A stretch of DNA of 64,000 nucleotides from Candidatus Doudnabacteria bacterium (GTDB lineage: Bacteria > Patescibacteriota > Doudnabacteria > UBA920), in NCBI GenBank assembly GCA_963837465.1, contig CAWINB010000004.1:202853-266852 (forward strand). The letters run 5' to 3'. Made by a program: the position numbers and the translations under genes. Under the pieces are notes generated by a model, which saw only the letters and a program-made list of their open reading frames with translations, did no database searches and was not told the DNA's origin. Positions 2,205 to 40,152 of this stretch are shown in pieces. The first letter of the stretch is position 1. Each line of letters starts with the position of its first letter.

Positions 2205-2209
2205 TATTC

Positions 2210-14182: not shown

Positions 14183-14258
14183 GGGACGGTAGCTCAGCTG
14201 GTAGAGCAGCGGCCTTTTAAGCCGTTTGTCCCGGGTTCGACCCCCGGCCGTCCCACCA
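14183..14258 (+). tRNA. tRNA-Lys(TTT), copy 1, CCA encoded
   Basis: Cloverleaf with acceptor GGGACGG/CCGTCCC, anticodon stem GCGGC/GCCGT, loop CTTTTAA, T-arm CCGGG-TTCGACC-CCCGG. Confidence 0.9.
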
Positions 14259-14261
14259 AAA

Positions 14262-14300
14262 TTTTCAAGCTTTCAAAGCAACTACTTTTAAATAAGTAGT
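14262..14300 (+). terminator. Rho-independent terminator-like hairpin after tRNA-Lys
   Basis: AAAGCAACTACTTTTAAATAAGTAGTTGCTTTTTTATTT, a perfect 12-bp stem followed by a T-run. Confidence 0.6.
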
Positions 14301-14551
14301 TGCTTTTTTATTTGTGTCCAGCTTTTTGCGGACTTCAGCCATTTATTTTGGAGATAACAAGTATGGAGCAACATTTTAAAGTTAACATTGGCGGCCGCTG
14401 CGGCTTGATGCATGTTTATGGAGATGGCGGTTGGTTAGAAATTGCGACCAATGAGCAGGACTACCATGACATGGGGGTTAAATACAATGTCGACAGCTGC
14501 GATCTGGTTAACGGCAAATGGGTTTTTCAGCCATTTGATTTTCAAAAATAA
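14300..14551 (+). CDS. Small hypothetical protein (island)
   Basis: 83 aa ORF at the island start. No motif recognised. Confidence 0.3.
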   Translation: MLFYLCPAFCGLQPFILEITSMEQHFKVNIGGRCGLMHVYGDGGWLEIATNEQDYHDMGVKYNVDSCDLVNGKWVFQPFDFQK

Positions 14552-14577
14552 TTAATCAAAAAAGAAAGGATAAATTT

Positions 14578-14802
14578 ATGGAGTATTTATTGGGTGTAGT
14601 AGTGTCTATTATAGTGGAAGTGGTCAAAAAATATTCTAACAGCAACACCGTTGGCACTTATGCCATTTTGCTGGTGGTGTCAGTGCTTGGAGCAGCTGGG
14701 TATTATTACGCCTCGCATTCGGCATACTGGCCGACTGCGCTGCAAATTTTGACCAGTGCTGCGGCATTCCACAACTTGGTGATTCGGCAGCTGGCTGATT
14801 AG
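14578..14802 (+). CDS. Small membrane protein with two predicted TM helices (island)
   Basis: 74 aa ORF with two hydrophobic helices, holin-like in size. Function unknown. Confidence 0.3.
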   Translation: MEYLLGVVVSIIVEVVKKYSNSNTVGTYAILLVVSVLGAAGYYYASHSAYWPTALQILTSAAAFHNLVIRQLAD

Positions 14803-15098
14803 GTGGGTATAACTTACGGCAGGCAGCTAAAAACAGGCTTGGTTTGCAGGCCTGTTTTTCATTTGACCTTAAGTATTTTTAGAGTATAATTAAGGTATAC
14901 AAAGTTGTCGCAGATTTAAAACAAAAGTTAAGATTTCATGTCTTTCAAGCAATTTAATTTTCCGGATAGCCGCAAGGACTCATTTTGCCGGTAACCAGCC
15001 ATTGTCACATCACCATTGACAATGGCCTTGACTCGTGGTAACATTAACGTTCCCTGTAACAGTCGGCCATCCCTATCGTTATTATTAATAGATGACTT

Positions 15099-15443
15099 AT
15101 GGCTGACGAAAAGTGCGTCATTGACATTTTAGATTACAGGCAAGTTCGGATAGTTTTCACCGAGAAGAAATGGATGTTTAAGTGCCAGACCCATCCTGAA
15201 CTAAAAAGCCAAACCTTTTTAAAAAACGTTGAACGGACGTTGCAAGAGCCTGAAGAGGTCTGGGAAGATTACGACGATCCTAAGCATAAATATTGTTATT
15301 ACCGAAAATACTCCACCAATACTATGGTCAAAGTCGTAGTATGGATGGATGGAGATAACCACATTGTTACGGCTTACGAAACTGATTTTATTAAAGAGAC
15401 CAAGTATCAACCGGATTTAAAACAAGTTTATAAAAAATTGTGA
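15099..15443 (+). CDS. Hypothetical protein (first gene of a small pair)
   Basis: 114 aa ORF placed 8 nt before the next ORF. No motif recognised. Confidence 0.35.
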   Translation: MADEKCVIDILDYRQVRIVFTEKKWMFKCQTHPELKSQTFLKNVERTLQEPEEVWEDYDDPKHKYCYYRKYSTNTMVKVVVWMDGDNHIVTAYETDFIKETKYQPDLKQVYKKL

Positions 15444-15450
15444 GGTATTT

Positions 15451-15861
15451 ATGACCGAAGCAATCCAAGAACAAAAGAAGAAAGAAATCTTTGATTTCGT
15501 TTACGGGCTTCCTGCAATGGCAAAAAAGGACGGCTGGGTTCTTCGCTATGATCCGGAAAGCGACGAAGCATCAATCACTGTCCCAGAACTCTCCGACGAC
15601 GCCCGCATCCACTATGTCAACGACGAAATCGCCCTCTATTTTTCCAAAGGTGTTATCCAGGGCTTGTTTATCGAATACTTCCGCAAGAACTTCGTTCAGC
15701 ATCAACCCAATGATCTCACCGCCTTGGCAGAAAAAATAAACACCCCTTCCGAAAATGAGGGTTTTGTTGAGATGTCTTGGAATAAGGTAGAAAAAATCGC
15801 TCCGGATTTGGAAGATTCCATCAAGCGCGCTTTGGTGAAAGACGCAGCACTATCAGTATAA
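15451..15861 (+). CDS. Hypothetical protein (second gene of the pair)
   Basis: 136 aa ORF followed by a terminator hairpin at about 15905..15955 (AAAAAAAAGCCGGGAG...CTCGGCTTTTTTG). Confidence 0.35.
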   Translation: MTEAIQEQKKKEIFDFVYGLPAMAKKDGWVLRYDPESDEASITVPELSDDARIHYVNDEIALYFSKGVIQGLFIEYFRKNFVQHQPNDLTALAEKINTPSENEGFVEMSWNKVEKIAPDLEDSIKRALVKDAALSV

Positions 15862-16198
15862 ATTACTTTGCTAAACCCCTCCGAATTCTGTAACAGGACC
15901 CGGAGGTTCCAAAAAAAAAGCCGGGAGTCCAGTGTTCTGGATATCTCGGCTTTTTTGTTATAATGGAGCTATGGGAACAGTAATTTTAATTATTTTAGCA
16001 TATCTTGTGGTCGGCTTACTCATGGTCTTTTGGGATTTCCGCAGAAACAACTCATTACATGAACCACCGCGTTTTATTCATGACCGTAGCGTAAGCACGG
16101 CAATAATTTTTGTATTAATTTGGCCTTACAAATTACTTGCAAAAATTTAACGATCGAGTTATATTAACTTTAGATTTTCGGCGAAGGCCTACCCTTTA

Positions 16199-16831
16199 TT
16201 GGTGGAGATTGGTCTAGTAGGTAGAATCAAACGGAACGGACCTGTTAGAATAGCCGAAAACGCAAACCCCGCAAGGGGTTTGTTTTATTACTTGCCAATA
16301 AATTTGGGGCAAGTTAATATGTTTAACAGCATGATAACTTTTGACAAAATTAAAGATTTTTTTAAACAAGGCTGGACTTATAAACGCATAGGCAATCAGT
16401 TTGGGGTGAGCAGGCAGCGTATCCAGCAGGTCGTTAAAGAGAATGGCTATGGTAATAGGCGGCCGCCTGTTCCCGATTTCACCGACGAAAAAAAATTTAA
16501 ACAGTCGGAATTTTATAGGAAGAGGGTCAAGCAATTCGGACGCTTTAATTTACGAGATTATTTAAACCGGCAACCAGTTTCAAAAAAGAAACGTTTAGAA
16601 GTTTTTCAGCGTGATAATTTTACCTGCCAATATTGCGGTAAAAAGAGAGGGGAAGTCAAACTTTCTGTTACTCACAAAATCCCCCTCTCTCGTGATAATC
16701 GAGACAACTTTCACGATATAGAAAATTTAATTACAGCTTGCAGGAGCTGCTCCAGTAAAAAAGGCTACAGAACCCACGAGGAATTCGTCAGCAATAAAAA
16801 GGTCACTATGTTTGAAGCTTTAGGCAAATAA
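16199..16831 (+). CDS. HNH endonuclease with N-terminal HTH
   Basis: HNH beta-beta-alpha zinc motif CQYCGKK...VTHKIPLSRDNRDNFHDIENLITACRSCSSKKG. An HTH (YKRIGNQFGVSRQRIQQVV) sits upstream. The real start is probably an internal Met. Confidence 0.75.
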   Translation: MVEIGLVGRIKRNGPVRIAENANPARGLFYYLPINLGQVNMFNSMITFDKIKDFFKQGWTYKRIGNQFGVSRQRIQQVVKENGYGNRRPPVPDFTDEKKFKQSEFYRKRVKQFGRFNLRDYLNRQPVSKKKRLEVFQRDNFTCQYCGKKRGEVKLSVTHKIPLSRDNRDNFHDIENLITACRSCSSKKGYRTHEEFVSNKKVTMFEALGK

Positions 16832-17149
16832 GGTAATTTTTATATCTAAAATAGACCTAATAAAGCCCGAAAAGGGCTATTTTTATTAGGTTTTCGCTTA
16901 TTCTTGACAAAATAGCTAAAATAATGTATAATTATATGTCTTAATAATTCCACTTTTGTAGGGGTTTATTAGGACGCATTTTGATCTTAAATATTTCAAA
17001 GGGGGACTATTTTTGAGAAGATAAAGAGATTCTTTGGGCAGATTTGCATACAACTTTTTGTATTCATCTCCGCCCAAGGAATCAGATAGTGTTCATGAGA
17101 CTATCTGGCACCTGGTTGCAGTTAACTTTCTGAAACAGGAGAATTCCAC

Positions 17150-17938
17150 ATGAAGACGCTTTCGATGATCATCACGCTTTCGCTTTCCGTTTCCGCATTC
17201 GGAGCCGATGTGCATCATATGCACAAAGGGAAGATCGAAGCTGACAGCACAACTACTGCCAACCCGGCCAGCACAGGAGCCAAGGTTCTCGTTTGGTCAG
17301 ACAAGAAGTTCTATCTGCCCGGCGAGGAAATCAAGCTCCGAGCGCTCGGCTTCGCCGCCGACGCAACCCAGCTCCAGATTTCCATCTCGGAGCAGTTCAC
17401 TGACGATCAGGGCAATGTGGTTTCCACAAACTACTATCCCTGTGAGTGCGGCGACAGCAACGCCGGATACGTCCCGACTCTGGCTAACTTCAACTTCATC
17501 ACGTTGCTTTCCAAACGCGTTCCGCAGCTTGCCATTGGCCGGTATGACTTCACGGTTACAATCAGCCAGTTTCCCGGCAACGGCGCAGCTAGTCTGCCTT
17601 ATCAGACCACTCAACTCACCGTATTTGGTATGATAAGCAATGCACCGGAGGTTAACCCGATCGTCATCAATCAGATCCAGCAGGGTGTCAGCCAGGGACC
17701 CATCATACTGGTCACCGGACGGTTTCCCAAGAATGTCCCGATGAACTACTTTATCGGCGCAGCACCTTATGAAGGGAGCTTTTCAGATCAACCGACCGCA
17801 ATCTCCACGGATGGCACGTCGCTGATCTTGCCGGGGCTGAGCGGATCTCGCATGGAAAGCCGGGTCATCCTCATGTTGCCGGACGGAAGTTTCAGCACCA
17901 CTTCGGCGCAGAACTTTCTGCCAGCGATCACGCACTAA
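17150..17938 (+). CDS. Secreted hypothetical protein in a GC-rich pocket
   Basis: Signal peptide MKTLSMIITLSLSVSAFGA. GC content is clearly higher than the surrounding AT-rich island, consistent with foreign origin. Confidence 0.5.
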   Translation: MKTLSMIITLSLSVSAFGADVHHMHKGKIEADSTTTANPASTGAKVLVWSDKKFYLPGEEIKLRALGFAADATQLQISISEQFTDDQGNVVSTNYYPCECGDSNAGYVPTLANFNFITLLSKRVPQLAIGRYDFTVTISQFPGNGAASLPYQTTQLTVFGMISNAPEVNPIVINQIQQGVSQGPIILVTGRFPKNVPMNYFIGAAPYEGSFSDQPTAISTDGTSLILPGLSGSRMESRVILMLPDGSFSTTSAQNFLPAITH

Positions 17939-18018
17939 CCTTCTCGATTCTAAATCCTTGCTTAATGCAAGGTAGCCGCGGCATCCTCAATGGATAGTCC
18001 GCGGCTTTCTTTTGGTTT

Positions 18019-18243
18019 CTAAAAAGTTTTAAATAGCTCCTCAAGGCTGGTGCCTAAGGCTTTGGCTATTTTTTCTATATTTTTCAAAGCTATATTCCGT
18101 TCCCCTCGTTCGACACCACCAATATATGTGCGATCTAACCCAGACTTATTGGCTAAAGCCATTTGGGAAGTGATCCCTTTTTTCAGGCGTAGCTGATAAA
18201 TGCGCTTACCAAACTTCTTTAAAATGTCATTGTTTTTATTCAC
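18019..18243 (-). CDS. XRE-family helix-turn-helix transcriptional regulator
   Basis: 74 aa ORF with the classic Cro/C1 HTH (LRLKKGITSQMALANKSGLDRTYIGGVERGERNIALKNIEKIAKALG). Confidence 0.8.
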   Translation of the reverse strand: MNKNNDILKKFGKRIYQLRLKKGITSQMALANKSGLDRTYIGGVERGERNIALKNIEKIAKALGTSLEELFKTF

Positions 18244-18363
18244 CCTTTAAGAATAAAGGGCAGATGATTATAAGGCGACGGACTATGAGTATCAGTAAAC
18301 CTGTGGTATAATGCGGGAAAAGGTGTATAATATAGGAAACATTAACTTTTAGAAACAAAAACA

Positions 18364-19848
18364 ATGGACAACCAAAATATAGGCATGGAGGGTAATTCTC
18401 CAGCGGTCTACACCCCGACAACTGCCATTCCACCAAGCAACGGCATGCCCGGCGCTAAATTGCCGGGACCCATTGCCATTTTAAGGCAAGCTTGGGAAAT
18501 TTATAAAAGCCGTTTTGGCTTATTGCTTGGTATAACATTGCTTCCCTCCGGATTATTGTTGGTTTATTTTTTGTTAGTTGGAGGAGGCGTAATCGCAGGA
18601 AGTTTTTTAACTCCACAGTTAGGGTCAACAGCTGGCGGTGCGACTGTAATCGCCGGGATAATACTTGCTGTCCTTCTATACATTGCGCTAATTTATGTTG
18701 GTATTTGGGCACAAACTGCTTTAATACTTGCTATAAAGGGTGCGGATCAGAAAGTTGGATTTAAACAATCGTTTGGTCAGGCTTCCCATAAAATCGGTTC
18801 ATTTTTTGGCGCCAGTTTACTTGTAGGAATGGCTGTTAGTGGCATGGCATTACTTTTTGAGGTGCCGGGTTTCCTTTTATTTTATAGTGTTTTGTTAAAA
18901 TTTTTACTGCCGTTTTATCAATACCTACTTTTCATCATTGGCGCCTTGGCTTTTATCTTAATTATTCCGGCTATTATTATTGGCGTTCGGTATTCCCTTT
19001 CTGCGTTTGTGGTTGTCGGAGATAACACCAAAGCCTTGTCTGCCGTTAAACGTAGTCGCGATTATGTAAGCGGCTATTGGTGGCCAGTGTTCTGGCGCTT
19101 TTTGTTCATTGGGGTAATAGCGATAATTTTTACTATAATTATTTTTATTATTACCGCATTTTTAACGACTGCCCTTAAAGGAGTAGCCGGATCAGTAGGG
19201 ACTATAATAGGGTCTATCATCAATCTAGCACTATCAGTCATTCTGCCGCCCTTATACATTACTTACGGCTATGAAGTATACACAAACTTAAAAGCCATCA
19301 AAGGAGAATCTCAGATACCGGCAGACAAATCTAGCGGAGTCGTGTGGATAATTATTGTGGTGGTAATACTAGTTATAGCCATAGCTGGGGTATCGATTGT
19401 TTTGCTCAGTTTAAACTCGGCTCGTTCAAAATCCCGCGATGCCAAAAGGTTGGCTGATGCCAGGCAAATCTCAGCAGCATTAGAACTCTACTTTAATGAT
19501 AACAACGCCTATCCGAATACTTTATCGCAATTAGTTCCTACCGATATAGGCGTATTGCCAGTAGCGCCAGAGCCTGCTGATGGTGCTTGCACCTCTTCTG
19601 AAAATCAATATCAATACCAACAAGTTAGCACTAATGATTATAAATTTACTTTCTGCACCGGTGCTTCGGTAGGCGGATATTCTGCCGGGATGCACACCAT
19701 GACCACTCAAGGTATAGATAGCGGTTCTAATAACTTAGAAAATTTTAACTTTCCAAATTCTATACCACAAAACACTACAGCTCCCGCTAGCCAAAGCAAT
19801 CTCGGCTCAAGCCTCAATAGCATTCAAAATTCCAATGGATCAAGATAA
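18364..19848 (+). CDS. Polytopic membrane protein fused to a C-terminal type IV pilin-like globular domain that lacks a prepilin cleavage site
   Basis: The N-terminal ~330 aa contain about 8 TM helices. The C-terminal ~150 aa (NSARSKSRDAKRLADARQISAALELYFNDNNAYP...GGYSAGMHTMTTQGI) are clearly homologous to the host pilin mature domain at 13468..13995 (SSARQKSRDAKRLADMAQMNTGLELYFSDNQGYP...GDFAPGMHILTPEGV). There is no G|FTLIE motif. Confidence 0.7.
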   Translation: MDNQNIGMEGNSPAVYTPTTAIPPSNGMPGAKLPGPIAILRQAWEIYKSRFGLLLGITLLPSGLLLVYFLLVGGGVIAGSFLTPQLGSTAGGATVIAGIILAVLLYIALIYVGIWAQTALILAIKGADQKVGFKQSFGQASHKIGSFFGASLLVGMAVSGMALLFEVPGFLLFYSVLLKFLLPFYQYLLFIIGALAFILIIPAIIIGVRYSLSAFVVVGDNTKALSAVKRSRDYVSGYWWPVFWRFLFIGVIAIIFTIIIFIITAFLTTALKGVAGSVGTIIGSIINLALSVILPPLYITYGYEVYTNLKAIKGESQIPADKSSGVVWIIIVVVILVIAIAGVSIVLLSLNSARSKSRDAKRLADARQISAALELYFNDNNAYPNTLSQLVPTDIGVLPVAPEPADGACTSSENQYQYQQVSTNDYKFTFCTGASVGGYSAGMHTMTTQGIDSGSNNLENFNFPNSIPQNTTAPASQSNLGSSLNSIQNSNGSR

Positions 19849-20755
19849 CGACCCAATTCCAGTGCCTAAACCTACAAGCTCGGATCCCGCCATTCAGGAG
19901 CTTGGAGAAATTACCGACGTTAATGCTGACGTTGATAAATATATCACCCAAAAATACCGTAACCAAATGATAGTTGGCGGATTAATTCTCTTAGCAGCTG
20001 AAGTCCTCTGGTTTATTTATATTTTTGCCAGCAATAATGTTTCTCAAGGCACTTTGGAAGTGGCCTTAATTCCGGTCTTCTTTGCCGTCGCTCTTTTCTC
20101 ACTCGTCAAAAATAAAATCCAAGACGCATTTTTCCAGCAGTTTGCAGCAAGCAACGGATTTACCTTCCAAAAAATCGGCTTGCCGGACAATTTGGATGGT
20201 TCGTTATTTTCCATCGGCCACAGCGCAGGGGGAAGAGATTTAGTTACCGGCAACTTCCAAAATTTGCCGTTGACCCTCTTTAGTTACCACTATACTATAG
20301 GTTACGGAAAAGGCGCACGGACTTATTTTTACACTATTTTCAGACTGGATTACCCCACCCCGTTGCCGCCGATTTTTTTACAAGTAAAAGGCCACGATTT
20401 CGGTGAAGGCATCTTTGATCACTTTTCCAAAAATGACCCGGAAAAAATCCAATTAGAAGGAGACTTTAATCAATACTTTACTCTTTATACCAAGAAAAGT
20501 TTTGAAACAGAGGCATTGCAGGTTTTATCCCCAGACTTTATGGTAAAAATTCAGGATGAGTGGAAAAATTTCAGCTTGGAATTTGTGGGAAGCCATTTGT
20601 ATATTTATACTTACCACGTTGTAGGCACCAAAGCCGAGCTAGACAGCATGTATCAGCTAGCCCAATACCTTATAACAAGAATAGAACCTATGGCGGCTAG
20701 AATGAAGACAACCCTAACTACTTTAGAAGGTTACTACAATGGAGAAAAACAATAA
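19835..20755 (+). CDS. Membrane-anchored hypothetical protein
   Basis: 306 aa ORF with two N-terminal TM helices, overlapping the previous gene by 14 nt. Confidence 0.4.
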   Translation: MDQDNDPIPVPKPTSSDPAIQELGEITDVNADVDKYITQKYRNQMIVGGLILLAAEVLWFIYIFASNNVSQGTLEVALIPVFFAVALFSLVKNKIQDAFFQQFAASNGFTFQKIGLPDNLDGSLFSIGHSAGGRDLVTGNFQNLPLTLFSYHYTIGYGKGARTYFYTIFRLDYPTPLPPIFLQVKGHDFGEGIFDHFSKNDPEKIQLEGDFNQYFTLYTKKSFETEALQVLSPDFMVKIQDEWKNFSLEFVGSHLYIYTYHVVGTKAELDSMYQLAQYLITRIEPMAARMKTTLTTLEGYYNGEKQ

Positions 20756-20848
20756 AAATTTGTTGACGGCTTGTCAAAAATGTGCTATAATTAAAGCAAT
20801 AATTCCTTTAAAATAAAAATTATTAATTCGATAATTAAAAAACCACAT

Positions 20849-23206: not shown

Positions 23207-23289
23207 TTCGACTCAGAAAAAATTGCAAAACCGCCATGTCTAGAGCTGGCGGTTTTTGCTTTGTAAATAGGAAAAGCGGCCGCGAAACT

Positions 23290-25723: not shown

Positions 25724-25760
25724 ACTTGCATTTGTATACCGGTTATGTTAATATGGATGT

Positions 25761-30676: not shown

Positions 30677-31372
30677 TCATATATTTGAATCTCCTGTCAG
30701 TTGCCCGATTGCTTCTTTAAAAGCGCAACCTGTTTGCAACATAATTAGTTTTATTACGTCTCCCTGCATCCCGCAACCGAAACACTTAAAAGTATTAGTG
30801 CTGGTATAAATGGTAAACGAAGGTGTTTTTTCTTGATGTAGCATGCAAAGACCTACTTTGGTTTTGCCGCTCCGCCTCAACTTTCCTCGGTAAAAATTTT
30901 CTATAGGGACTTGTTTAGCATAATTTATCTGCTCTTGGGTTAGCCGTCCCTTTAAGACCTTGCCTCTTTTAATCCACAATAACCCCATGACTCGGTAAAT
31001 CTGTTTTTTCGCTTCAATTATTTTTTGGACTTCGTACGACTTCAGCCCTTGCCGCAGAAACCAAAGGTCGTTGGAATTTTTGGCAATAAGTTTAAAGGTT
31101 TTGAGTTTTTTACGAATTTCCGTAGATATAATTTGCTTGACGTTTTCCCAATCCTTGATTTTTTGTACCAACAAAGCTTCGTCTACTTCAGGGAAAATTT
31201 TTAATAGTTCTATTTCCGTGTATCTTACTTGGTGAAAGCGGTAATATTCTTCTTCAAGTTTCAAAAGATAAAGTAGTTGCCTATGCTCGGCCTCATCTTT
31301 TAAATCTGCTTCATTTAATATTTTCATCTTTAGCTGATTTTTTACCTTTCTGCTTAGCGACCAGTTCTTCAT
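30677..31372 (-). CDS. DNA primase zinc-finger (zf-CHC2) domain protein
   Basis: The C-terminal CMLHQEKTPSFTIY...FKCFGCGMQGDVIKL matches the DnaG/P4 primase CHC2 finger (C..H..PS......F.CFGCG..GD.I.). Confidence 0.6.
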   Translation of the reverse strand: MKNWSLSRKVKNQLKMKILNEADLKDEAEHRQLLYLLKLEEEYYRFHQVRYTEIELLKIFPEVDEALLVQKIKDWENVKQIISTEIRKKLKTFKLIAKNSNDLWFLRQGLKSYEVQKIIEAKKQIYRVMGLLWIKRGKVLKGRLTQEQINYAKQVPIENFYRGKLRRSGKTKVGLCMLHQEKTPSFTIYTSTNTFKCFGCGMQGDVIKLIMLQTGCAFKEAIGQLTGDSNI

Positions 31373-31585
31373 AAATGAAAAGTATTGATCGGCAGTATTC
31401 TGCCAAGTTTGGAGAAAGCTGGTCGCTAAGATTTAATAATTTTTTTTCTGGATCCATGCATTAATTATAAAATTTTCCAGAAAAATATTTTATTTCAACT
31501 TGTTTACTGTACAAAATAAAAAACGGCTAACTTTAGCCGTTTAAAAAAATTTATTAACAATAACCAAAAGTAAACAAACGGTAAA

Positions 31586-32590
31586 CTAATCGTCTTGCGT
31601 AAATTTTATATCATACCTATCGTAGTTTAACCTATACCCCCCAGTAGGAACTTTTTCAATTAACTTATAATGCAAATTCAATTTTTCTTGAAAATGTCGG
31701 TTAATTTCATTTACCGCTGTAGTGACAACAGTATAGCGGGTCTTTAATATTGCTATTAATAAGGGACCTGTTAAAAATCCGTTCTCTAAAGATTTTACCA
31801 AGACCATACGTTTGCGACTAATCGGATACTTCAACTCCCCAAGATCTCCAATTCTCCAAATGCCTTTGTTTCCAGATATATAAATTTGCATGCCGGTATG
31901 ATAGTCTGCCGGTTTGGGAACTTTAACTTTTTCGTATGGATTTTTATTTTTAGACAATGGCTTTAATAGTTCAACTGAATATTCATAACAATGAAGCTTG
32001 GAAGAAATATCATAATCCAAAAATAGACGCAATGATACGTTTAAAATTTTTATAAAGCCGTCATCGCTTATAGCCTGTATTGCTTCGCTAAGTGACACTG
32101 CCTGGTAATCATCTTGAGCGACTTTAAATAAATCCTTTTCAGTAAAGATAAACTTATCGCTATCCGCTCTTGACTTCGCTTCCAAAAGGGCTCGTGTCAA
32201 AATATTTTTCTGCTGTTCAATTTTATAAAATTTTTTGGGTATACAATTCTGGTTATTAAAAAACCAATTGGCAACCTCAAACACATTTTTCCAGTTAACG
32301 CCTTTCAAATGGTAAGCATATTCTACACGGTCATCCCCAGGCTCTCTTTCCACATCAACAACTCTAATTTGGTAGCTTTTAAATAAGCCCCACATATTAA
32401 ACCTCTCCACGCAGTTTTTTAAATCATTATCAACATCATCAATTATCATTTCCCCATCAGTTGCCCCGAATTGATAATTTTTTATAATCCCATTGAGCAG
32501 TTTAATTTCTGCCTCCGTTGGGTTCTGCATTAGGTCAGTTAGATGAATCATGGTTGTCACTCGGTTAAAACCGGATTTTTTAAAATTCAC
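31586..32590 (-). CDS. Hypothetical protein, 334 aa
   Basis: AT-rich ORF. No motif recognised. Confidence 0.35.
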   Translation of the reverse strand: MNFKKSGFNRVTTMIHLTDLMQNPTEAEIKLLNGIIKNYQFGATDGEMIIDDVDNDLKNCVERFNMWGLFKSYQIRVVDVEREPGDDRVEYAYHLKGVNWKNVFEVANWFFNNQNCIPKKFYKIEQQKNILTRALLEAKSRADSDKFIFTEKDLFKVAQDDYQAVSLSEAIQAISDDGFIKILNVSLRLFLDYDISSKLHCYEYSVELLKPLSKNKNPYEKVKVPKPADYHTGMQIYISGNKGIWRIGDLGELKYPISRKRMVLVKSLENGFLTGPLLIAILKTRYTVVTTAVNEINRHFQEKLNLHYKLIEKVPTGGYRLNYDRYDIKFTQDD

Positions 32591-32901
32591 AATGTCTATA
32601 CAGGGAACGTTTTTTATCGTTTTGTTCTATTATAGCCCTGCTTAATTAAGCTGGCAATTATTCACTTTAAGCTGATTTTGGTATATAATAGTAATGGAAA
32701 ATTTAACACCTAAACCGTAATTTTTACGGCATGGTGTGACAAAAAACGATTGAAGTTCAAGGGTGGTCATCCACCTTGCTTTACTTCAATCGTCATAGCC
32801 GAAAGGTTATGGGCAAATCCGAAAGGACGAGCCGAGCAAGCTCTGGATGGCCTTTTTGTTTGGCTAACCAACTTGCTCCTTAACAATTAAAACAATAAAA
32901 A

Positions 32902-33705
32902 ATGGATAAAAACATTACAAATGCTGTCTCCACAGAATCCAAAACTATTAATAAAGATGAAATGAAAGAGCTGCAAAAAAATAAAAAAATTGGTTTCATC
33001 GTTGGAATTATAGGGTTAGTTCTTTTGCCTGTTTATGGCCTTGGCATACTTCTGTTGCTACTAGCAGTATGGTTTTGGAATGGAAAGAAAATTCCAAAAA
33101 TTGTTAAATCTGTTACTGATTTTTCAAAGGATTCAAAACAAGAAAAAATTTTTTGGGATTTGATGAATGGAAAATATGGCCATACCGATCTAGGCGTAGG
33201 AGATATTATAATGTTGTATATTATCAGCTTAGTAAGAGAACTTCGTGTTGGAGATTTTCCCATCAAAAGTGCAACTGACCAAAATAGCTTTAATAAAAAT
33301 ATAATACAGGAAAGTAACGGGTCATTTAAAAATATTCAAATATTATGTGACGCTATGGAAGAAAAAAAGAAAATCAGTAAAGAACTCTTTAACAAGATTA
33401 CTTTTATTTCTACTGATGCTGAGGCACTTAAAAAATTTGAAGATTTTAAAAATGATATGATGAATCGTAATATTGAAGGAATTGACAAAGTTTTATCGTC
33501 TATTATTGATGCGGCAAAAGATCCAAAAAACGAAACTACGGTCTTGGAGGCCATGAATAAGTTTGGGGAGGACGGTATTTACGACCCACTTTATAAAAAA
33601 ATCCAAGAAAAAGAAACGGCAAAAAAATTAAAAGAAACTCTTAACGATTGGGAATACTTAAATATGCTAAGGTGGTGTATAGCAAGTTTTAAAGCAAGAA
33701 GCTAA
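32902..33705 (+). CDS. Membrane-anchored hypothetical protein
   Basis: 267 aa ORF with one N-terminal TM hairpin. A terminator hairpin follows at 33735..33770 (AAAAGCTCCCC...GGGGAGCTTTTTTG). Confidence 0.4.
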   Translation: MDKNITNAVSTESKTINKDEMKELQKNKKIGFIVGIIGLVLLPVYGLGILLLLLAVWFWNGKKIPKIVKSVTDFSKDSKQEKIFWDLMNGKYGHTDLGVGDIIMLYIISLVRELRVGDFPIKSATDQNSFNKNIIQESNGSFKNIQILCDAMEEKKKISKELFNKITFISTDAEALKKFEDFKNDMMNRNIEGIDKVLSSIIDAAKDPKNETTVLEAMNKFGEDGIYDPLYKKIQEKETAKKLKETLNDWEYLNMLRWCIASFKARS

Positions 33706-33846
33706 AAAATGAAAAACTTAAAAAAATAATTATTTTAAAAGCTCCCTTGTAATGGGGAGCTTTTTTGTATGAGGTTTTATACGGCCAACCTCGGATAAGT
33801 GTTCTGCCGGTCAATCTTCTTTCACAAAACTACACATCTGTTAGAG

Positions 33847-34239
33847 TTAGCCGATAGCCTCTTGTAATTTTCTTTCGTATTCCAAATCTACTTCTCCGTC
33901 AATATCTGGTTGTAATTCTTCTATCTGTTGTTCAGACCGTTCGGCTATAATTCCCTTATTTCTAGATCGGATTTCACGAAGTATGCCAGCCAATGGACCT
34001 TCCGTAGGAGTTGAAATTTCCATGCTGTCCTTAACCTTACCTAATGACCTGTCAAAAACTTCTTTTAATGCAGAAACCTCACCAGATTTAGCTTTCTCAA
34101 TCAGAGCTTCAACTAGCTCTTTTTTATTTGCTATAACCTGCTCTATCATATACTGCCGAAAGGTTATGGCTTCCAGCGTATGGCTAGCTAAACTGCCTTT
34201 TGGCCTGCCTGAGTTTTTGCGTTTTCCGCCGTGATTCAT
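33847..34239 (-). CDS. Hypothetical protein with a basic GGKRKNSGRPKG N-terminus
   Basis: 130 aa ORF. The GRPKG-type motif is reminiscent of phage small terminase or AT-hook-like DNA binders, but the assignment is weak. Confidence 0.3.
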   Translation of the reverse strand: MNHGGKRKNSGRPKGSLASHTLEAITFRQYMIEQVIANKKELVEALIEKAKSGEVSALKEVFDRSLGKVKDSMEISTPTEGPLAGILREIRSRNKGIIAERSEQQIEELQPDIDGEVDLEYERKLQEAIG

Positions 34240-34375
34240 AAAACTTGGTTAAATAATCAAATAACCAAGTTTATTATAATTGGTCTGCCAGTCCTGTAAA
34301 CGGATTAATTTTACTCTTTATAATAAGCCAATTTAGGTATATTATATATAAGTACACTTATTTTTATACTATAAA

Positions 34376-35314
34376 ATGCCTACTAAATTTAAACCAGGGG
34401 AGATAATTGATAAAGTATATATGGTTGAAGAAGCCTTTACAGGAGGTTCATTTGGGCATGCTTATAAAATAAAAAATGGTACAGGCTATGAAGTTATAAA
34501 AATCTGTGCAGAACCTGCTGGTACAACCGAAGCACTAAGATTTGTGCAAGAAAATGATTTTTTGTACAAACTATTTCCAAACCCCGCTATTATTGAGCCA
34601 CTAAGTAAAATCAGCCCATTAAATCCCGACAGTATTTATTATAGGATGAAGTTTGCTGATTATAATCTAGAAACTTATCTAGACGATTTTGAATCAAGCC
34701 TTGACCTAAATAGTAAATTGTCTATATTCAAAGGAATATGCGAGGGCTTAAAGCATGCACATGCAAATAAAATTTTGCATAGAGATTTGCATTGGGGGAA
34801 TATTTTAATTGACATGCTAAATAACATGCCAGTCCCTAAACTGACCGATTTTGGAAGATCTAAAGATCTAAAAGCTTTAATAGCATTATCATCAAATCCT
34901 GGAATTTGGGGAGAATTTGTTTGTCCACCAGAAATAAGGTTTAGGATTTGGGATAAACTTCCGACAAATTATATGGAGGGTGATATATACTCTTTGGGGA
35001 TTATATTTTATTATATATTAGGGGCTATGCCGAACTTCCCATTTATATTTCAAAATGAAATTATAAATTTTTTAAGAAATAAAAAGGTGACTCTTAAGAC
35101 AGTTAATGATGAAAGTATCCGTCATGGTTTGTATAAAGAATGGCTAGGAACCCTCACAGACCAAAAGATTAATAGTCATCTCAGCATTTTAATAAATGGA
35201 AGTGCGGTAATAAATGACAAAATTAATACCATTTTAAAAAAACTTAGCCATCCTAATTATGAGTTGCGGTATCGTTCGGTAGAGGATGTGTTAAAAGAAA
35301 TAGCAACACTATAA
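34376..35314 (+). CDS. Ser/Thr protein kinase-like protein
   Basis: Glycine loop GGSFGHAY, a VIKI lysine, catalytic loop HRDLHWGNILI and DFG motif LTDFGRS. Confidence 0.7.
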   Translation: MPTKFKPGEIIDKVYMVEEAFTGGSFGHAYKIKNGTGYEVIKICAEPAGTTEALRFVQENDFLYKLFPNPAIIEPLSKISPLNPDSIYYRMKFADYNLETYLDDFESSLDLNSKLSIFKGICEGLKHAHANKILHRDLHWGNILIDMLNNMPVPKLTDFGRSKDLKALIALSSNPGIWGEFVCPPEIRFRIWDKLPTNYMEGDIYSLGIIFYYILGAMPNFPFIFQNEIINFLRNKKVTLKTVNDESIRHGLYKEWLGTLTDQKINSHLSILINGSAVINDKINTILKKLSHPNYELRYRSVEDVLKEIATL

Positions 35315-37086
35315 TGGAAGACTTATTAATAATTCGTAATGCCACCAAAGCACAGCCAGCAGAAATTATTGCTGACCCTAATTTGGATTTGCCAGATTTT
35401 TATTTAGACCAAAAAAATCCGGAAAAAAATAAGTATTATGAAAAAGAAAAGTCCGAAGACTATTCCTTTTTAAGTAAAAATTTAAATAAAGAATTCCTAA
35501 AAAATCAATACAAAATAGCAAAATCAAATTTTGCAAGAAAAAAAAGCACCAGGAATGCTTACGCATTAGGTGAAATATTTTTATTAAAAAAAATCTTTTC
35601 CACTGCTAAAAATTATTACAAAATTAGCATAGAACTTGATAAGTCTTTTCTGCCTGCTTATGAAAAATTAGTATTGGTGTCCATAATTCTAAACGAAACA
35701 GATAGGGCAAATTACTATTATAAATTGCTTTTAGAAGTTTCCAATCATAGACCAGATCTAGTTCATAGTTACGCGCTTTTTAGAGTTGCAAGCTCTGCTG
35801 GAGATAAAACGACTTTGGATGAGACGCTCAAAGACTTAGATCAAATTTTAGCTCTGCAACCATTGGATATTGCCGCAATAAATAGTTATGGATTTATTTT
35901 ACTAAATTTTTACCAAAAACTTGATGAGGCACAACAGTATTTTGAGAAGGCTTTAGAAATAGATTCTACCTTTGTTCACTCAATGAATAATTTAGCGGTT
36001 TGTTATATTCATAAAAATGACTTAACAAAGGCTATATCACTACTTGAAAAAGCAATAAAAATCCATCCAAACTATGTGATGGCATATCAAAATTTAGCTG
36101 GCATATATTTTAGAACAAATAAATTAGCAGAAGTGTCCAAGATACTTAAGCAAGCAGTAAAAAATAATATTACCTTATCTGACGAAACCAAACATCTGTC
36201 TGGTTGGCTTTTAATTCTTACTCATAAATATGAGGAGGCAAAAAATTGGTACCTGAAAGAAATAATGGGAGAGCCAGGAAATAATCTTTTATATAACAAT
36301 TTAGGGTACGCATACCAACAACTCAAAGATTTAAACAAAGCAGAAGAATACTATAAACAGGCTGTTGATATAGCGAAAAGAAGAAAGGCAAAAAATTTAT
36401 TTGTTGATGACAGATCTCTTTTTGCCTTTTATAATCTTGGCCGACTTTTTCAATTTTTTGGTAAAGTTGACGAACTCCATAAAATTTCAAATGATATTCT
36501 TAATTGGAAGCCCGAAGATCCTTTTGGCCAATATTTGTATGGGAGCGCTTTAGTCATAGATGGTAAGCATGATGCCGCTAAAAAACAATTATTAAAGGTA
36601 GTTGAAAAATATCCGAAACTTCCAGAAACCTATCAAGACCTTTCTTACATATATGACTCTATAGATAAAGATTATAAAGCTTCTATTGATTTGTTGAATG
36701 ATGCCATAAAAATTGGAATTAACTTACCTATAATTTATAATAACTTGGCAATAGCCTATATAAATTTAGGAGACTTTAAAAATGCAGAGGACACGCTTAA
36801 TAAAATAACGGATGATTGTGAGCCTACAATAATTGCAACCCGGGGACTTTTAGCTTTTAGAAAAAATGATTCGGAGAAAGGTAATAAATATTACAAAAAA
36901 GCTGTCGATGAAATTAAACCGCAATTAAAAAATTTGGCGAATCAAATTTGGTTATATGAGCAAGCATTTTATTTCTTTCGTACTGGAAAGTTAGAAGAAG
37001 CAAAGATAAAACTCAAAGAATCAAAGAAAATGGGTAAATCATATATGACTAAGGATATAACCGAATTAGAAAATAAACTGACCTAA
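35314..37086 (+). CDS. TPR-repeat protein
   Basis: 590 aa ORF with multiple 34-aa TPR-like repeats (A..YY..AL..DP....A.NNLG..Y). Its start overlaps the kinase stop (ATAATGG). Confidence 0.7.
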   Translation: MEDLLIIRNATKAQPAEIIADPNLDLPDFYLDQKNPEKNKYYEKEKSEDYSFLSKNLNKEFLKNQYKIAKSNFARKKSTRNAYALGEIFLLKKIFSTAKNYYKISIELDKSFLPAYEKLVLVSIILNETDRANYYYKLLLEVSNHRPDLVHSYALFRVASSAGDKTTLDETLKDLDQILALQPLDIAAINSYGFILLNFYQKLDEAQQYFEKALEIDSTFVHSMNNLAVCYIHKNDLTKAISLLEKAIKIHPNYVMAYQNLAGIYFRTNKLAEVSKILKQAVKNNITLSDETKHLSGWLLILTHKYEEAKNWYLKEIMGEPGNNLLYNNLGYAYQQLKDLNKAEEYYKQAVDIAKRRKAKNLFVDDRSLFAFYNLGRLFQFFGKVDELHKISNDILNWKPEDPFGQYLYGSALVIDGKHDAAKKQLLKVVEKYPKLPETYQDLSYIYDSIDKDYKASIDLLNDAIKIGINLPIIYNNLAIAYINLGDFKNAEDTLNKITDDCEPTIIATRGLLAFRKNDSEKGNKYYKKAVDEIKPQLKNLANQIWLYEQAFYFFRTGKLEEAKIKLKESKKMGKSYMTKDITELENKLT

Positions 37087-37126
37087 ATCATATATTTTTG
37101 TTTAAATTAAAATATTTATTAACCGT

Positions 37127-37657
37127 ATGAAAATTTCCTCAATGATACTATTTCCACATAATCCTCATTCTAGTAAGCTAGATAGATTTATCAAAGTGAT
37201 ACTGTTAGTAGGGGTTTTAACCTTTTTTATCTTAATATATGAAAATATCATCGTACCTGCCCAGCAACGCCAGCCTTATTATGCCTTTTCTTTTCAAAAT
37301 AACTATGATACATTTCCGGAAAAAGAAATTTATTGTAATTTAAAGCCTCTATGCATGAACCCAGATCAAATTGTCATTTCTTATGACACTTATGCTGATA
37401 ATACAGCCGAAAAAAATTATGTATCACAGGCAATGATACAAAATGTTGATAACCAACAAATATTGAACCACTTAGAAAATGATGGGGCAATTAACGTAGC
37501 CCAACTAAAAGCTAAAGACATTAATGATTACCAAGACTACGTCAATCAAGCGATTACCCGAACTATTTTATATACAATTATTGCCTATTTTTTTGCTACG
37601 CAAATACTTTATAGAATTTTTTTATATATTGTTTATGGTAAGACGAAACAAGTTTAA
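37127..37657 (+). CDS. Membrane hypothetical protein (N- and C-terminal TM segments)
   Basis: 176 aa ORF with no recognised motif. Confidence 0.35.
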   Translation: MKISSMILFPHNPHSSKLDRFIKVILLVGVLTFFILIYENIIVPAQQRQPYYAFSFQNNYDTFPEKEIYCNLKPLCMNPDQIVISYDTYADNTAEKNYVSQAMIQNVDNQQILNHLENDGAINVAQLKAKDINDYQDYVNQAITRTILYTIIAYFFATQILYRIFLYIVYGKTKQV

Positions 37658-37666
37658 TTTAAAAAA

Positions 37667-37981
37667 ATGCGCAACATTAATAAGTCAGTTGCTATAATTA
37701 TACCTAAAAAGCCCTTTGCAAACTGGGCTAATCATCTGCCAGGTGTTGACACGGAACTTAGCTTTAACGAGCTTAAAAAATATGCTAAAGCTATTTTGCT
37801 AGAAAAATTTACAACTTCTAAAGAAGCCAAGGAAGTATTCAGTCAAACATGGAATGAGGTTTTTGAAGAGTATCTAACAAGCTGGTCTAACGACGTGGAT
37901 TATTGGCCAACAGGTAGAACCAAAGAATTATTTTACAAATGGTTTGATGTAGAATTTTATTCTAACGTTTTAGATCTATAG
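37667..37981 (+). CDS. Small hypothetical protein
   Basis: 104 aa ORF with no recognised motif. Confidence 0.3.
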   Translation: MRNINKSVAIIIPKKPFANWANHLPGVDTELSFNELKKYAKAILLEKFTTSKEAKEVFSQTWNEVFEEYLTSWSNDVDYWPTGRTKELFYKWFDVEFYSNVLDL

Positions 37982-38002
37982 AAAGATAAAAAATAAAAAT
38001 TT

Positions 38003-38578
38003 ATGGATTATAAGATATTCGTTAGTATAATTTCAGTCATCCTTGTTTTTGTAGGATACGGCCCGTACATTCGGGATATTTTTAAGCGAAAGACAACCCC
38101 ACATACTTTTACTTTTTTGGTTTGGGGTATTTCAAGTTCAATTACTTGGGCTTTACAAGTGATGGGGGGGGCTGGAGTGGGTGCGTGGATAACATTTGCG
38201 GTTTCTGCCGTGTGTATATTTATTTTTTTCCTGTGTCTAAAATATGGTGAAAAAAGTATCGCTATTTCAGACGTTGTATTTTTAATACTTGCCCTGTTTT
38301 CGCTTTTTCTTTGGCTTGTGGTAAAACAGCCAGTCTTGTCAGTAATACTTGTGGTTTTAACGGATATATTAGGTTTTGGGCCAACTATAAGAAAGTCTTG
38401 GAATAAACCTCATTCCGAAACATTATTTACTTGGTGGGTCGCGGCATTTAGGCACGCATTAGGTATTATTGCCTTACAAAAGTTTAATATTTTTACACTT
38501 CTTTATCCAGTAGCCTGGACGATAGCCAACTTAATTTTTTGTCTAATTTTGCTTATAAGACGTAAGCAAATTAAGTAA
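38003..38578 (+). CDS. Polytopic membrane protein (about 6 TM)
   Basis: 191 aa ORF made up almost entirely of hydrophobic helices. Confidence 0.45.
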   Translation: MDYKIFVSIISVILVFVGYGPYIRDIFKRKTTPHTFTFLVWGISSSITWALQVMGGAGVGAWITFAVSAVCIFIFFLCLKYGEKSIAISDVVFLILALFSLFLWLVVKQPVLSVILVVLTDILGFGPTIRKSWNKPHSETLFTWWVAAFRHALGIIALQKFNIFTLLYPVAWTIANLIFCLILLIRRKQIK

Positions 38579-38590
38579 ATTTGTCCTTTT

Positions 38591-38980
38591 ATGGAACGTG
38601 CAGAAACATTAGGCCTTTTGGCCTTTAAAAACTGGGTAGGAGATCGGGGCGAAATCCTTAATACTTCTAGGGATGGAGTTGGGTATGATTGCAAAGTAAA
38701 ATGGAAGGACACGGGCTTGGCCGAAACATACGAAATTAAAGGAACAGCAAAAGTATTGAAAATTCCCGATATGAGCGTCGTTGAATTTGATGAAAGCCAT
38801 AGATTAAAGGCCGATTTTCTTTTTGTGGCCGGAAACGTATTTGAAACTGGTAAAGAAGTGCTGTTTAAAATTCCAAGAGAAGCCTTAACTGAAGAAAATC
38901 TAAAACTGAAACAAACCTATCATATAAGGCTTTTCCAAAACCAAAAGAAAATGGGGAAATACCGCCTTACCAGTAATTAA
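38591..38980 (+). CDS. Stand-alone DUF3883 (NOV C-terminal, restriction-endonuclease-like) domain protein
   Basis: G.RGE...GVGYDCKV...ETYEIKGT matches the remembered DUF3883 signature G..GE...GyDi...yIEVKtT. Confidence 0.5.
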   Translation: MERAETLGLLAFKNWVGDRGEILNTSRDGVGYDCKVKWKDTGLAETYEIKGTAKVLKIPDMSVVEFDESHRLKADFLFVAGNVFETGKEVLFKIPREALTEENLKLKQTYHIRLFQNQKKMGKYRLTSN

Positions 38981-39260
38981 ATTGCTCTGATAAGGCAAAC
39001 CCGTCTGAAATAAAAAATTGACCTCAGATGAGGTCTTTGTGTAGAATGTATATAATATCGGCTTGGCTATTTAGATCATTCCTGACGTTAGCAGTGAACT
39101 CTGGGATAACCCTAATAAGGCCTGATAGATGTCCTTAACCAAACGAGCAAATAGTTTTCCAATTGGTTCTATATGCTCCACCAAAAAAAGCGCCGAGACT
39201 TTTTGGGCGCTTGTTAGTAAAAATAAAAAGTGGTATAATTAAGATAATTAAACTTATCTT

Positions 39261-39875
39261 ATGAGAAAAACATTATTACTTGCAGTTCCTTTAATTGCCT
39301 TGATGGCAGCTGGTTGTTCGTCAAATTCCAACAACAGCCCCCAGAGCAGCGCTTCGCAGTCACCAATTGCAAATTCTCCTAGCGTCCAACAACCATCGAC
39401 ATTGACGGCACCGTCAGCTGCCGAATCAGATTTTAAACAAGCCAGCGACCTAGCAGCACAGCAATGCAGTAATTTACAGCTGGTCGAATATTTCAAAAAT
39501 TTTAAACCAGCAGATAAGGGTAATACTGCCAGTGGTTATAAATTTATTTGCGACGATGGAAAATATGTCTCGGTTGATATAATGAGCACCGGAAACATGC
39601 AAACGAGAAAATTAACTAATCTTTACTATAAACCCATTACATTGGCAGATTGGAAAGTTAATTTAGATTCGGCAAAAAACATAGCTTTACAGAATGGTGG
39701 GAACGATTTTATTAGCAAAAATAGTGGAGCATTTTTGAATGGTGAAATTTTAACCAGCAGAACCGATGAAGGCTTTAAGTGGATTATAGATTTTGAGTCG
39801 CAAAATTATAATTCGGAATTGCAGATATTTATCGATCCGACGACTGGCGCAATACTAGGTCAGAAAACTTACTAA
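39261..39875 (+). CDS. Lipoprotein
   Basis: Signal peptide with a lipobox (LIALMAAGC|SSNSNNS). 204 aa. Confidence 0.6.
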   Translation: MRKTLLLAVPLIALMAAGCSSNSNNSPQSSASQSPIANSPSVQQPSTLTAPSAAESDFKQASDLAAQQCSNLQLVEYFKNFKPADKGNTASGYKFICDDGKYVSVDIMSTGNMQTRKLTNLYYKPITLADWKVNLDSAKNIALQNGGNDFISKNSGAFLNGEILTSRTDEGFKWIIDFESQNYNSELQIFIDPTTGAILGQKTY

Positions 39876-39983
39876 ATCGTATACCTTTAAAATTTCGGTC
39901 TGGGCAGGTTCTTTAAAAAATCGCACCAAACTTAAGCAAAGTTAAAATAATTCTCGCTTACAAATTGGTGGTTTGGCACATGT

Positions 39984-40012
39984 GCTGAGTTCGATCCCCG
40001 GCCGTCCCACCA
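39984..40012 (+). repeat. Partial tRNA-Lys 3' end (att-site remnant or direct repeat of tRNA-Lys copy 1)
   Basis: GCTGAGTTCGATCCCCGGCCGTCCCACCA. The 3' 24 nt match copy 1 with one mismatch. The 5' GCTGAGTTCGA part matches the attP-like core at 26073. Confidence 0.7.
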
Positions 40013-40044
40013 TAGTGTCCTTTTTCGCTTCTGCGACTAACCTG

Positions 40045-40152
40045 AATTCGTTTTTCCAGTTGACCTGTATAACCTTTTCGCTATTCCAGGTTAGGTTTTC
40101 AACCATAGATTTCACCAAACGCCTTTTCCCTTCGGGAGAGGCGTTTTGGTAT
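40045..40152 (+). repeat. Diverged ~105-bp direct repeat of 26255..26360 (LSR C-terminal coding remnant)
   Basis: CATAGATTTCACCAAACGCCTTTTCCCTTCGGGAGAGGCGTTTTGG aligns with CATAGACTTCACCAAACGCCTTTTCCCTTCGGGAGAGGCTTTTTGG. In both places the sequence lies directly 3' of a tRNA-Lys sequence. Confidence 0.7.

Follow-up and report, generated by a model that had tools for sequence, protein, structure and literature searches.

Results

Two tRNA-Lys genes and three related sites at one locus

The 64,000-nt stretch of DNA analysed here (the window) belongs to an 868-kb metagenome-assembled contig of Candidatus Doudnabacteria bacterium (Patescibacteriota), and this study concerns about 26 kb of it beside a tRNA-Lys gene, where a tyrosine integrase and a large serine recombinase (LSR) lie among sequences resembling attachment (att) sites. 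This region is probably a pile-up of mobile elements, of which two (A' and B') lie side by side and a third, the LSR element B'', is nested in B'. All features that an earlier note on this DNA had described were recovered where it had placed them.

Two intact tRNA-Lys(UUU) genes were identified with ARAGORN, copy 1 at 14183-14258 (+) and copy 2 at 26149-26224 (+), which scored 71.5 and 72.5 bits against the Rfam tRNA model. They are identical at 70 of 76 positions and have an exact stretch of 44 nt in common; all six differences fall in the acceptor and T stems, in line with the different acceptor stem noticed before, and base pairing is intact inside each copy. The T-loop core GTTCGACCCC and the tRNA 3' half at the end of copy 1 (24 nt, 14235-14258, +) recur at 39989-40012 (+; site 3) with 23 of 24 positions matching (E = 3.4e-6; this and the following statistics apply within the window). 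Such a pairing of an intact tRNA gene with a direct repeat of its 3' part at the opposite end is the arrangement of a tyrosine-integrase island.

Between these two repeats, site 2 (26078-26087) has only 10 nt in common with the tRNA, which is at chance level (E = 3.2), and its significance comes from its arm instead. Some 95-120 nt to the left of site 2 are homologous to the left flank of site 3, this being the best non-self match in the window, with a local score of 43 compared to 17.6 +/- 2.4 (maximum 28) in 500 shuffles. The repeated cores on which the earlier note had built thus gave a divided outcome when scored against background: site 3 and the arm of site 2 stood out, and the core of site 2 did not.

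A conserved tyrosine-integrase module ends at the internal site

The tyrosine integrase (386 aa, 24563-25723, +) matches PF00589 over profile positions 2-170 of 172 (E = 2.8e-39). Its catalytic R, K, HxxR, H and Y motifs are present, with TGMRISE, HTAR, LGHEK and QIY read in the translation, and the gene ends 350 nt before site 2, the spacing reported previously. Orthologues with 52-83% identity were found in other metagenomes, and the comparison of eight of their contexts (L087-L092 and L138-L140) revealed a common module composed of a leader, the integrase, a small open reading frame (ORF), an arm, the core and a tRNA-Lys 3' half (L087, L088/L089, L090-L092, L138, L139 and L140). An integrase module adjoining one att site is therefore conserved in relatives.

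The leader (24181-24562, +) is a conserved non-coding sequence of about 380 nt, 73-94% identical in the four sequences aligned, and contains a promoter-like TTGCAA-17-TATAAT at about 24262-24290. It also holds a hairpin-bearing, near-invariant block of about 80 nt (24283-24365), and at 24381-24406 the att core recurs in inverted form, CGAACTCA; the region may serve as a structured leader or in autoregulation. The ORF that follows the integrase, 62 aa in the window (25761-25949, +), is conserved in all orthologous loci with a length of 57-63 aa and is a candidate excisionase (Xis-like) or DNA-binding protein. The arm of about 120 nt begins with a GT(A/T)TACC-type motif in the orthologous loci and leads into a core that typically reads TG(T/G)GCTGAGTTCGAT(C/T)CCC, with GGTG for GCTG in L138. 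The core is followed by a host-specific tRNA-Lys 3' half, which ends in CCACCA and whose acceptor and T-stem bases vary by locus. An arm, a core and a tRNA-Lys 3' half in this order are the anatomy of an attR, and in the seven other metagenomic loci the arm after the integrase is always joined to a tRNA-Lys 3' half. The earlier proposal that the three sites correspond to the attB/attL, an attP-like site and the attR of a tyrosine-integrase element gains its support from these loci.

In the window, the arm after the integrase, X(A') (25967-26087, +), ends in the core GTTCGACCCC of site 2 and forms the right end of A', but site 2 alone is without a tRNA 3' half, the break falling directly after GTTCGACCCC. 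From the end of the integrase up to and including this core, the window matches L087 with 92.6% identity over 364 nt; beyond the core, L087 goes on with CGCCCATCCCACCA and the window with ATTAGACGAC. Since the homology breaks off exactly at the core, a recombination breakpoint is placed there, and site 2 accordingly has the make-up of an internal att site in a tandem accretion, namely an orthologous arm and core with homology ending right after the core. It also follows from the identity of the two arms that A'-type elements exist alone. The chance-level match of site 2 to the tRNA would suit the idea that this site is meaningless and that a single island of 25.8 kb, from copy 1 to site 3, carries a tRNA and two recombinase systems by chance; however, we hold this to be highly improbable in view of the L087 alignment, in which the relative enters the tRNA-Lys 3' half at the very position where the window diverges. 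Reading the right side of site 2 as a decayed tRNA 3' half was also tried, and with 7 of 13 positions matching the L088 3' half base by base it was unconvincing.

The sequence GTATACCYWT, a putative arm-type site for the integrase, has three exact matches in the window, all of them in att arms, and is absent from the arm adjoining copy 1. Scans of viral contigs with the LSR half-site, the arm core, the LSR family and the integrase as queries gave only distant or unrelated matches, or none, and no free (excised) form was found among them.

Two side observations concern the orthologous loci. Upstream of the integrase, L088/L089 (positions 1-4315) carry ParB, a serine recombinase of a different clade and a set of genes (CD-NTase, Cap15 and NYN) resembling a cyclic-oligonucleotide-based antiphage signalling system (CBASS), from which it follows that the cargo of this island family includes defence genes; the LSR-like gene at the left end of L088 was considered as a sign of a two-integrase element and discarded because of its different clade. 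In L090-L092 (L090 around 11425-13416), the attR tRNA-Lys 3' half faces a pilin gene and a gene for a 417-aa protein, which in the window and in a relative without an island, L136 (described below), lie upstream of the tRNA 5' end. This change of side points to an inversion at the locus in that lineage.

Two probable elements side by side

A' (14259-26087), which carries the tyrosine integrase, has a cargo (14259-24180) that includes a PBECR2 toxin-like gene, an HNH endonuclease, pilin-like and membrane proteins and a surface protein with a PKD domain. Its GC content is 0.431, compared to 0.354 in B'' and 0.47 in the flanks, and the tetranucleotide correlation of the cargo (r 0.87) is lower than that of the flanks (0.97-0.99). 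No conjugation genes were seen in the composite island.

B' (26088-39998) lies in tandem to A', and a Pfam domain search of 26088-39998 found no tyrosine recombinase in it. Without the LSR element nested in it, B' amounts to about 0.95 kb (26088-26224 and 39184-39998) and contains a 61-nt left junction (26088-26148, +), tRNA copy 2, a PepSY-like lipoprotein gene (39261-39875) and an arm. The stretch on the far side of the LSR element (39184-39875, +) makes up the rest of this integrase-less remnant; a hairpin lies in B' after the reconstructed tRNA end, ahead of the PepSY-like gene, which stops 3 nt before the arm X(B') (39879-39998, +). X(B'), which has no integrase upstream and ends in the core GTTCGATCCC, the left part of site 3, is a diverged member of the arm family, about 70-75% alike to X(A'). 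The left junction contains an exact GTATACCTTT, as at the start of the X arms, and is without a counterpart for comparison. Its status as an att site is doubtful because no tRNA 3' half is found there, unlike in every other member of the family; one reading is that it is the decayed arm of an element whose strategy is to replace its target tRNA and not to repair it. Copy 2, which matches the native tRNA-Lys of L136 at 72 of 76 positions (66 of 76 for copy 1), probably originated in another Doudnabacteria-like genome.

Read in this manner, copy 1 would comprise the tRNA 5' part, the core and a 3' half with the left end of A'; site 2 would comprise the arm of A', the core and the left end of B'; and site 3 would comprise the arm of B', the core and the 3' half of the host gene. 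Two reciprocal exchanges at one and the same core would give this layout, the proposed order of the tyrosine system being attL (copy 1, 14183-14258, +), A', a hybrid junction (site 2), B' and attR (39989-40012, +), where the core is joined to the original host tRNA-Lys 3' half.

A probable serine-integrase element nested in B'

The gene for the 501-aa LSR (26160-27665, -), which the earlier note had recognised as convergent with copy 2, overlaps this tRNA gene by 65 nt, its last 21 codons and stop being antisense to the tRNA. All three of its domains (Resolvase, PF00239; Recombinase, PF07508; Zn_ribbon_recom, PF13408) match, and the catalytic serine in YVRVSS is invariant in the alignment of the LSR family. 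An exact-sequence look-up of the LSR returned no record, and a PDB search with the single sequence no match at E <= 0.001; the family profile matched the recombinase, zinc-ribbon and coiled-coil domain of the A118 serine integrase (4KIS, E = 8e-14) and the catalytic domain of the TP901-1 integrase (3BVP, E = 1e-17). By profile match, the family thus resembles the integrases of the Listeria phage A118 and of TP901-1; A118 integrates in comK, a protein gene, and not in a tRNA gene.

A gene for a short serine recombinase (255 aa, 27662-28429, -; Resolvase and partial Recombinase domains) overlaps the start of the LSR, and this gene pair is kept in L006 and L082. The 64-aa ORF upstream of the recombinases (28405-28599, -) is kept in L082 and L084, and both this ORF and the short recombinase are candidates for a recombination directionality factor. 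Further on, a replication-type module (28910-31372, -) encodes a 536-aa Walker A protein, 64.6% identical (tblastx) to its homologue in L082, together with a protein that has a CHC2 zinc finger of the DnaG type. L082 and the window have the primase-type, P-loop, short-recombinase and LSR genes in common, the two LSRs being 53% identical. Between divergent genes of the LSR element, a LOOT RNA (Rfam RF03000) was detected at 32707-32833 (+) with 51.8 bits, the gathering threshold being 46.4.

At the other end, a 34-nt motif (39150-39183) that ends in GCTCCACCA is 97% identical to the far end of the L082 element and has the same relative orientation, while both flanks of the motif are unrelated between the two. 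It was also considered as the 3' end of a small RNA gene, an assignment rejected on account of its unrelated flanks, a fold z-score of -0.6 and the lack of an Rfam match. Joining 39183 to 26225 yields a dyad, TTCCAAttgGTTC-18 nt-GAACttcTTGGAA, with 13-nt inverted arms. Of the 63,940 centres in the window, 25 reach the score of this reconstructed attP (16/26), which ranks first among the 37 CACCA candidates. On the basis of the far-end motif and the dyad, as read in two elements, the LSR element was placed at 26225-39183 (about 13 kb), with a presumed crossover within CCACCA, the core common to its attL and attR. Copy 2 would be its attL, and the half-site TTCCAATTGGTTCTATATGCTCCACCA (39157-39183, +) its attR. 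A long tRNA repeat at the far end of the element was not found, as is expected for serine integrases. When the element is taken out, copy 2 is followed by an A-run and a hairpin, like the natural region downstream of tRNA-Lys in L136, and the empty site would read copy 2 directly joined to AAAAAAGCGCC.

The att-like sequences, which had previously been treated as one set, are consequently divided between two systems: the tyrosine system keeps its three sites, and the LSR element has sites of its own at the CCA end of copy 2 and at 39157-39183. Of the tandem and nested arrangements that had been proposed for repeated integration at this tRNA, both apply, as the orthologous arm and core comparisons and sites 2 and 3 indicate, A' and B' being in tandem and the LSR element nested in B'.

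Related recombinases at the 3' ends of tRNA and tmRNA genes

The LSR homologues aligned (30-53% identity) end in peptides such as GIEP or NRTP, the antisense translation of tRNA T-loops. In the loci compared, their genes are convergent with, and reach or overlap, the 3' end of tRNA-Glu (L003, L041, L052 and L084-L086), of tRNA-Cys (L058), of the transfer-messenger RNA (tmRNA) gene beside smpB (L006) and, in L082, of a tmRNA-like stub. This last sequence (11439-11510, minus) aligns with nothing but both ends of the tmRNA model (28.4 bits) and lacks its 306 middle positions; it is the tRNA-like stub of a tmRNA.

Within the window, an LSR pseudogene at 44658-46288 (-), split into two ORFs of 355 and 177 aa, has its 3' end over tRNA-Gly (44703-44776), with which a cluster of host tRNA genes ends; after this second LSR comes an island of low GC content (0.38) that continues to about 53 kb. 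The cluster also contains, between tRNA-Val and tRNA-Gly, a tRNA with a group I intron (44316-44643, +; Intron_gpI at 44336-44608, Rfam 71.9 bits), which was missed by ARAGORN; group I introns in tRNAs have recently been described for Patescibacteria (PMC13011429).

An LSR C-terminal relic of 141 codons (1779-2204, +) stops 6 nt short of the 3' end of tRNA-Leu(taa) (2210-2296, minus), the rest of its element being gone, and in L087 another such relic (2824-3147, minus) directly follows the tRNA-Lys 3' half, which indicates that LSR relics recur at tRNA 3' ends. That a tRNA beside an LSR might be cargo of the LSR element was dismissed, because the tRNA-Gly closes a cluster of host tRNA genes and because, in L006, the gene concerned is that of a tmRNA next to smpB; these contexts speak for the adjoining tRNA as the target of the LSR.

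A further relic, LSR', follows site 3. The earlier note had detected a diverged copy of the LSR 3' end there, which proved to be real and longer than the 40045-40152 it had been given: the relic covers 40013-40178 (-), 55 C-terminal codons of an older LSR in an open minus-strand frame with 36 of 55 residues identical to the LSR C-terminus (69% identity and one in-frame indel at the DNA level), and it abuts the pyrD stop codon. Terminator-like hairpins are found about 105 nt past each tRNA end, at 26330-26351 (+, on the tRNA strand) within the LSR coding sequence and at 40123-40141 in the relic. The 36-nt block over the hairpin is identical in the LSR (26314-26349) and the relic (40105-40140), in surroundings of 69% identity, which would reflect either selection on the hairpin or gene conversion.

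These cases suggest an LSR clade specialised for the CCACCA end of tRNA and tmRNA genes, with an antisense overlap, a hairpin that replaces the tRNA terminator and a short serine recombinase as partner, a proposal for which we see the balance as even. The embedded terminator-like hairpin may be the reason why short LSR relics survive, and its replacement of the tRNA terminator would explain the three that persist (40013-40178, 1779-2204 and 2824-3147 in L087).

The flanks and an empty orthologous locus

The earlier note had suggested a search for island-free relatives to define the empty site, and one was found in L136, which is at genus or family distance and not a strain of the same species. 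The gene order of L136 is MacB/ABC, an orthologue of 439 aa, pilin, tRNA-Lys, terminator, a 129-aa gene, Methyltrans_SAM, a response regulator and, further on, DnaJ, and neither integrase nor LSR is present at its tRNA-Lys locus. On the left, the flank and the tRNA promoter region of L136 are orthologous to those of copy 1 in the window; on the right, its flank is orthologous to the sequence past attR in L087, L139 and L140. A single chromosomal tRNA-Lys locus is therefore empty in one relative and occupied by islands in others. In the window, the LSR' relic and pyrD have taken the place of the native right flank. A metagenome scan with pyrD yielded one locus of 2.9 kb, L081 (79% identity; pyrD, terminator and tRNA-Leu), whose synteny with the window ends at pyrD and which has no LSR relic; the relic is hence not part of the normal pyrD locus. 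An exact-sequence look-up of pyrD returned no record.

The regular position of the LSR family at tRNA 3' ends and the closer similarity of copy 2 to the L136 tRNA-Lys might favour an account by LSRs alone, in which copy 2 is the native gene, the region between the two tRNA genes is ordinary chromosome, and site 3 and the relic are the junction of successive LSR elements, with no part for the tyrosine integrase. This is very improbable, since in seven loci without this LSR the arm found at sites 2 and 3 is part of the tyrosine-integrase module, and such a tandem LSR model was rejected on this arm orthology. Moreover, copy 1, and not copy 2, has the promoter region and left flank that are orthologous to the empty L136, the attR of the LSR lies at 39157-39183 and not at site 3, and the composition of the region departs from that of the flanks.

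Discussion

Weighing the composite reading

The architecture of the locus and its statistics, the conservation of both att systems across their families and the empty orthologous locus are direct observations. Which enzyme made each junction, in which order the events took place and whether any of the elements is mobile at present are matters that we infer from them. Several points weigh against a pile-up of three elements. None of the orthologous loci showed a full tRNA-Lys, as expected for attL, in the 10 kb upstream of the integrase, and the nearest flank orthologues are only 50-56% identical, the left-flank protein at 11968-13377 having no orthologue above 56% outside the source genome. 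The dyad of the LSR element is weaker in L082, and a search for partner half-sites of the dyad at other LSR loci found none. Likewise, the left junction of B' (ATTAGACG...) would be a putative att arm only.

The metagenome-assembled source and the 44-nt exact repeat between the tRNA copies also count here, as does the 36-nt stretch that is exact in LSR and relic, because contigs of different strains could have been joined at common tRNA-Lys or LSR repeats. We regard such an assembly chimera as quite unlikely: each tRNA copy is internally paired, the breakpoints of sites 2 and 3 are at the T-loop core, outside the long exact repeats, and reciprocal recombination at a single position would account for the three junctions.

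A proposed history

In the history that we propose for the composite of A', B' and the LSR element, an LSR element would first have sat at the 3' end of the host tRNA-Lys, of which the last 55 codons or so of the recombinase (40013-40178) would be left, perhaps kept for their terminator-like tRNA hairpin. Two elements with a single att system, an arm of about 120 nt and a core, would then have recombined at the T-loop core GTTCGA(C/T)CCC, A' bringing the tyrosine integrase, the conserved leader and the small Xis-like gene beside its arm, and B' keeping the arm only, without a tyrosine integrase and with its own complete tRNA-Lys. This step would amount to the tandem accretion of an integrating element and an integrase-less, cis-mobilisable one. 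Finally, the LSR element of about 13 kb (26225-39183) would have entered B' at the CCACCA end of copy 2, with the LSR antisense into the tRNA. By the same scheme, A' alone would end in its arm, the core and CGGCCGTCCCACCA, followed by the LSR' relic.

A different course, in which the composite of A' and B', with the LSR element already nested in it, formed in a previous host and was integrated once by its outer sites, with site 2 as the fossil of an accretion that took place elsewhere, appears to us the less probable one, though it deserves consideration. The outer repeat is nearly perfect (23/24) compared with arms about 70-75% alike, copy 2 is nearer to the L136 tRNA-Lys (72/76) than copy 1 is (66/76), and transfer of a whole composite has been documented for other elements (PMC5704250); on the other side, A'-type elements occur alone, as the identity of 92.6% between the arms of A' and L087 shows. 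Such a one-step acquisition alters the history of the locus and not its anatomy.

Comparison with known systems

Tandem and nested islands at tRNA genes are already known, and the less ordinary part of the locus is the LSR clade at tRNA and tmRNA 3' ends. Tandem accretion with a cis-mobilisable element (CIME) is known from the integrative and conjugative elements (ICEs) ICESt1 and ICESt3 of Streptococcus thermophilus, and a composite island with IME_Sag2603_tRNAlys, an integrative and mobilisable element (IME), lies at tRNA-Lys in S. agalactiae (PMC5704250). As in these ICE or IME and CIME pairs, two adjacent elements are found at the 3' part of tRNA-Lys with an internal att site between them and the same core, one element with an integrase and the other with att sequences only. 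In contrast, the host of the window is a member of the Patescibacteria, no conjugation genes are seen and the mobility of its elements is putative; furthermore, the integrase-less left arm does not restore the tRNA, and a complete tRNA-Lys is carried instead.

Tandem and nested integrative elements at tRNA and tmRNA genes have been mapped by Islander/TIGER (PMC7192596). As in those arrays, the crossover core is restored at both ends, which permits further integrations, and the element within an element has its like in SopE-phi inside a tRNA-Phe island (PMC7192596); the nested element of the window differs in that it is of the serine class and uses another sublocation of a second, island-borne tRNA. 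Serine-integrase elements at tRNA or tmRNA genes made up 14 of 297 TIGER calls and were described in 2020 as previously unreported and needing experimental proof (PMC7192596). The LSR of the window, with its Resolvase, Recombinase and zinc-ribbon domains, likewise lies at an island edge beside a tRNA or tmRNA gene. Unlike those cases, however, it belongs to a whole clade with five targets (tRNA-Lys, tRNA-Gly, tRNA-Glu, tRNA-Cys and tmRNA) and a relic at tRNA-Leu, whose ORF runs antisense into the tRNA with a presumed crossover in the terminal CCACCA, and which has a terminator-like hairpin in the coding sequence and a short serine recombinase as a conserved neighbour.

A tmRNA-encoding island in the tmRNA gene of Rhodobacter replaces its target by the island copy (cited in PMC7192596). 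Similarly, the full tRNA-Lys of B' could substitute for a disrupted target; in the window, by contrast, the 3' half supplied by A' keeps the host gene (copy 1) intact, and replacement would be a possible past state only.

Significance

For the LSR, putative attP (39150-39183 joined to 26225-26250) and attB (26195-26224 joined to 39184-39210) sequences can now be supplied for a serine integrase aimed at a tRNA 3' end. Integrases of this kind, whose sites are short, defined and placed in genes conserved universally, have a practical interest in genome engineering. For the tyrosine-integrase family, which recurs at the same tRNA-Lys, the att system is defined by the leader, the integrase, the small ORF, the arm of about 120 nt and the T-loop core. 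With regard to the organism, the locus offers a precisely delimited, three-layer accumulation of islands at one tRNA gene in a reduced genome of the Patescibacteria, in which mobile elements are poorly charted. If the specialisation of the LSR clade for tRNA and tmRNA 3' ends is true, serine integrases would be the main tRNA-targeting integrases of this lineage, contrary to the rule that tRNA and tmRNA sites belong to tyrosine integrases.

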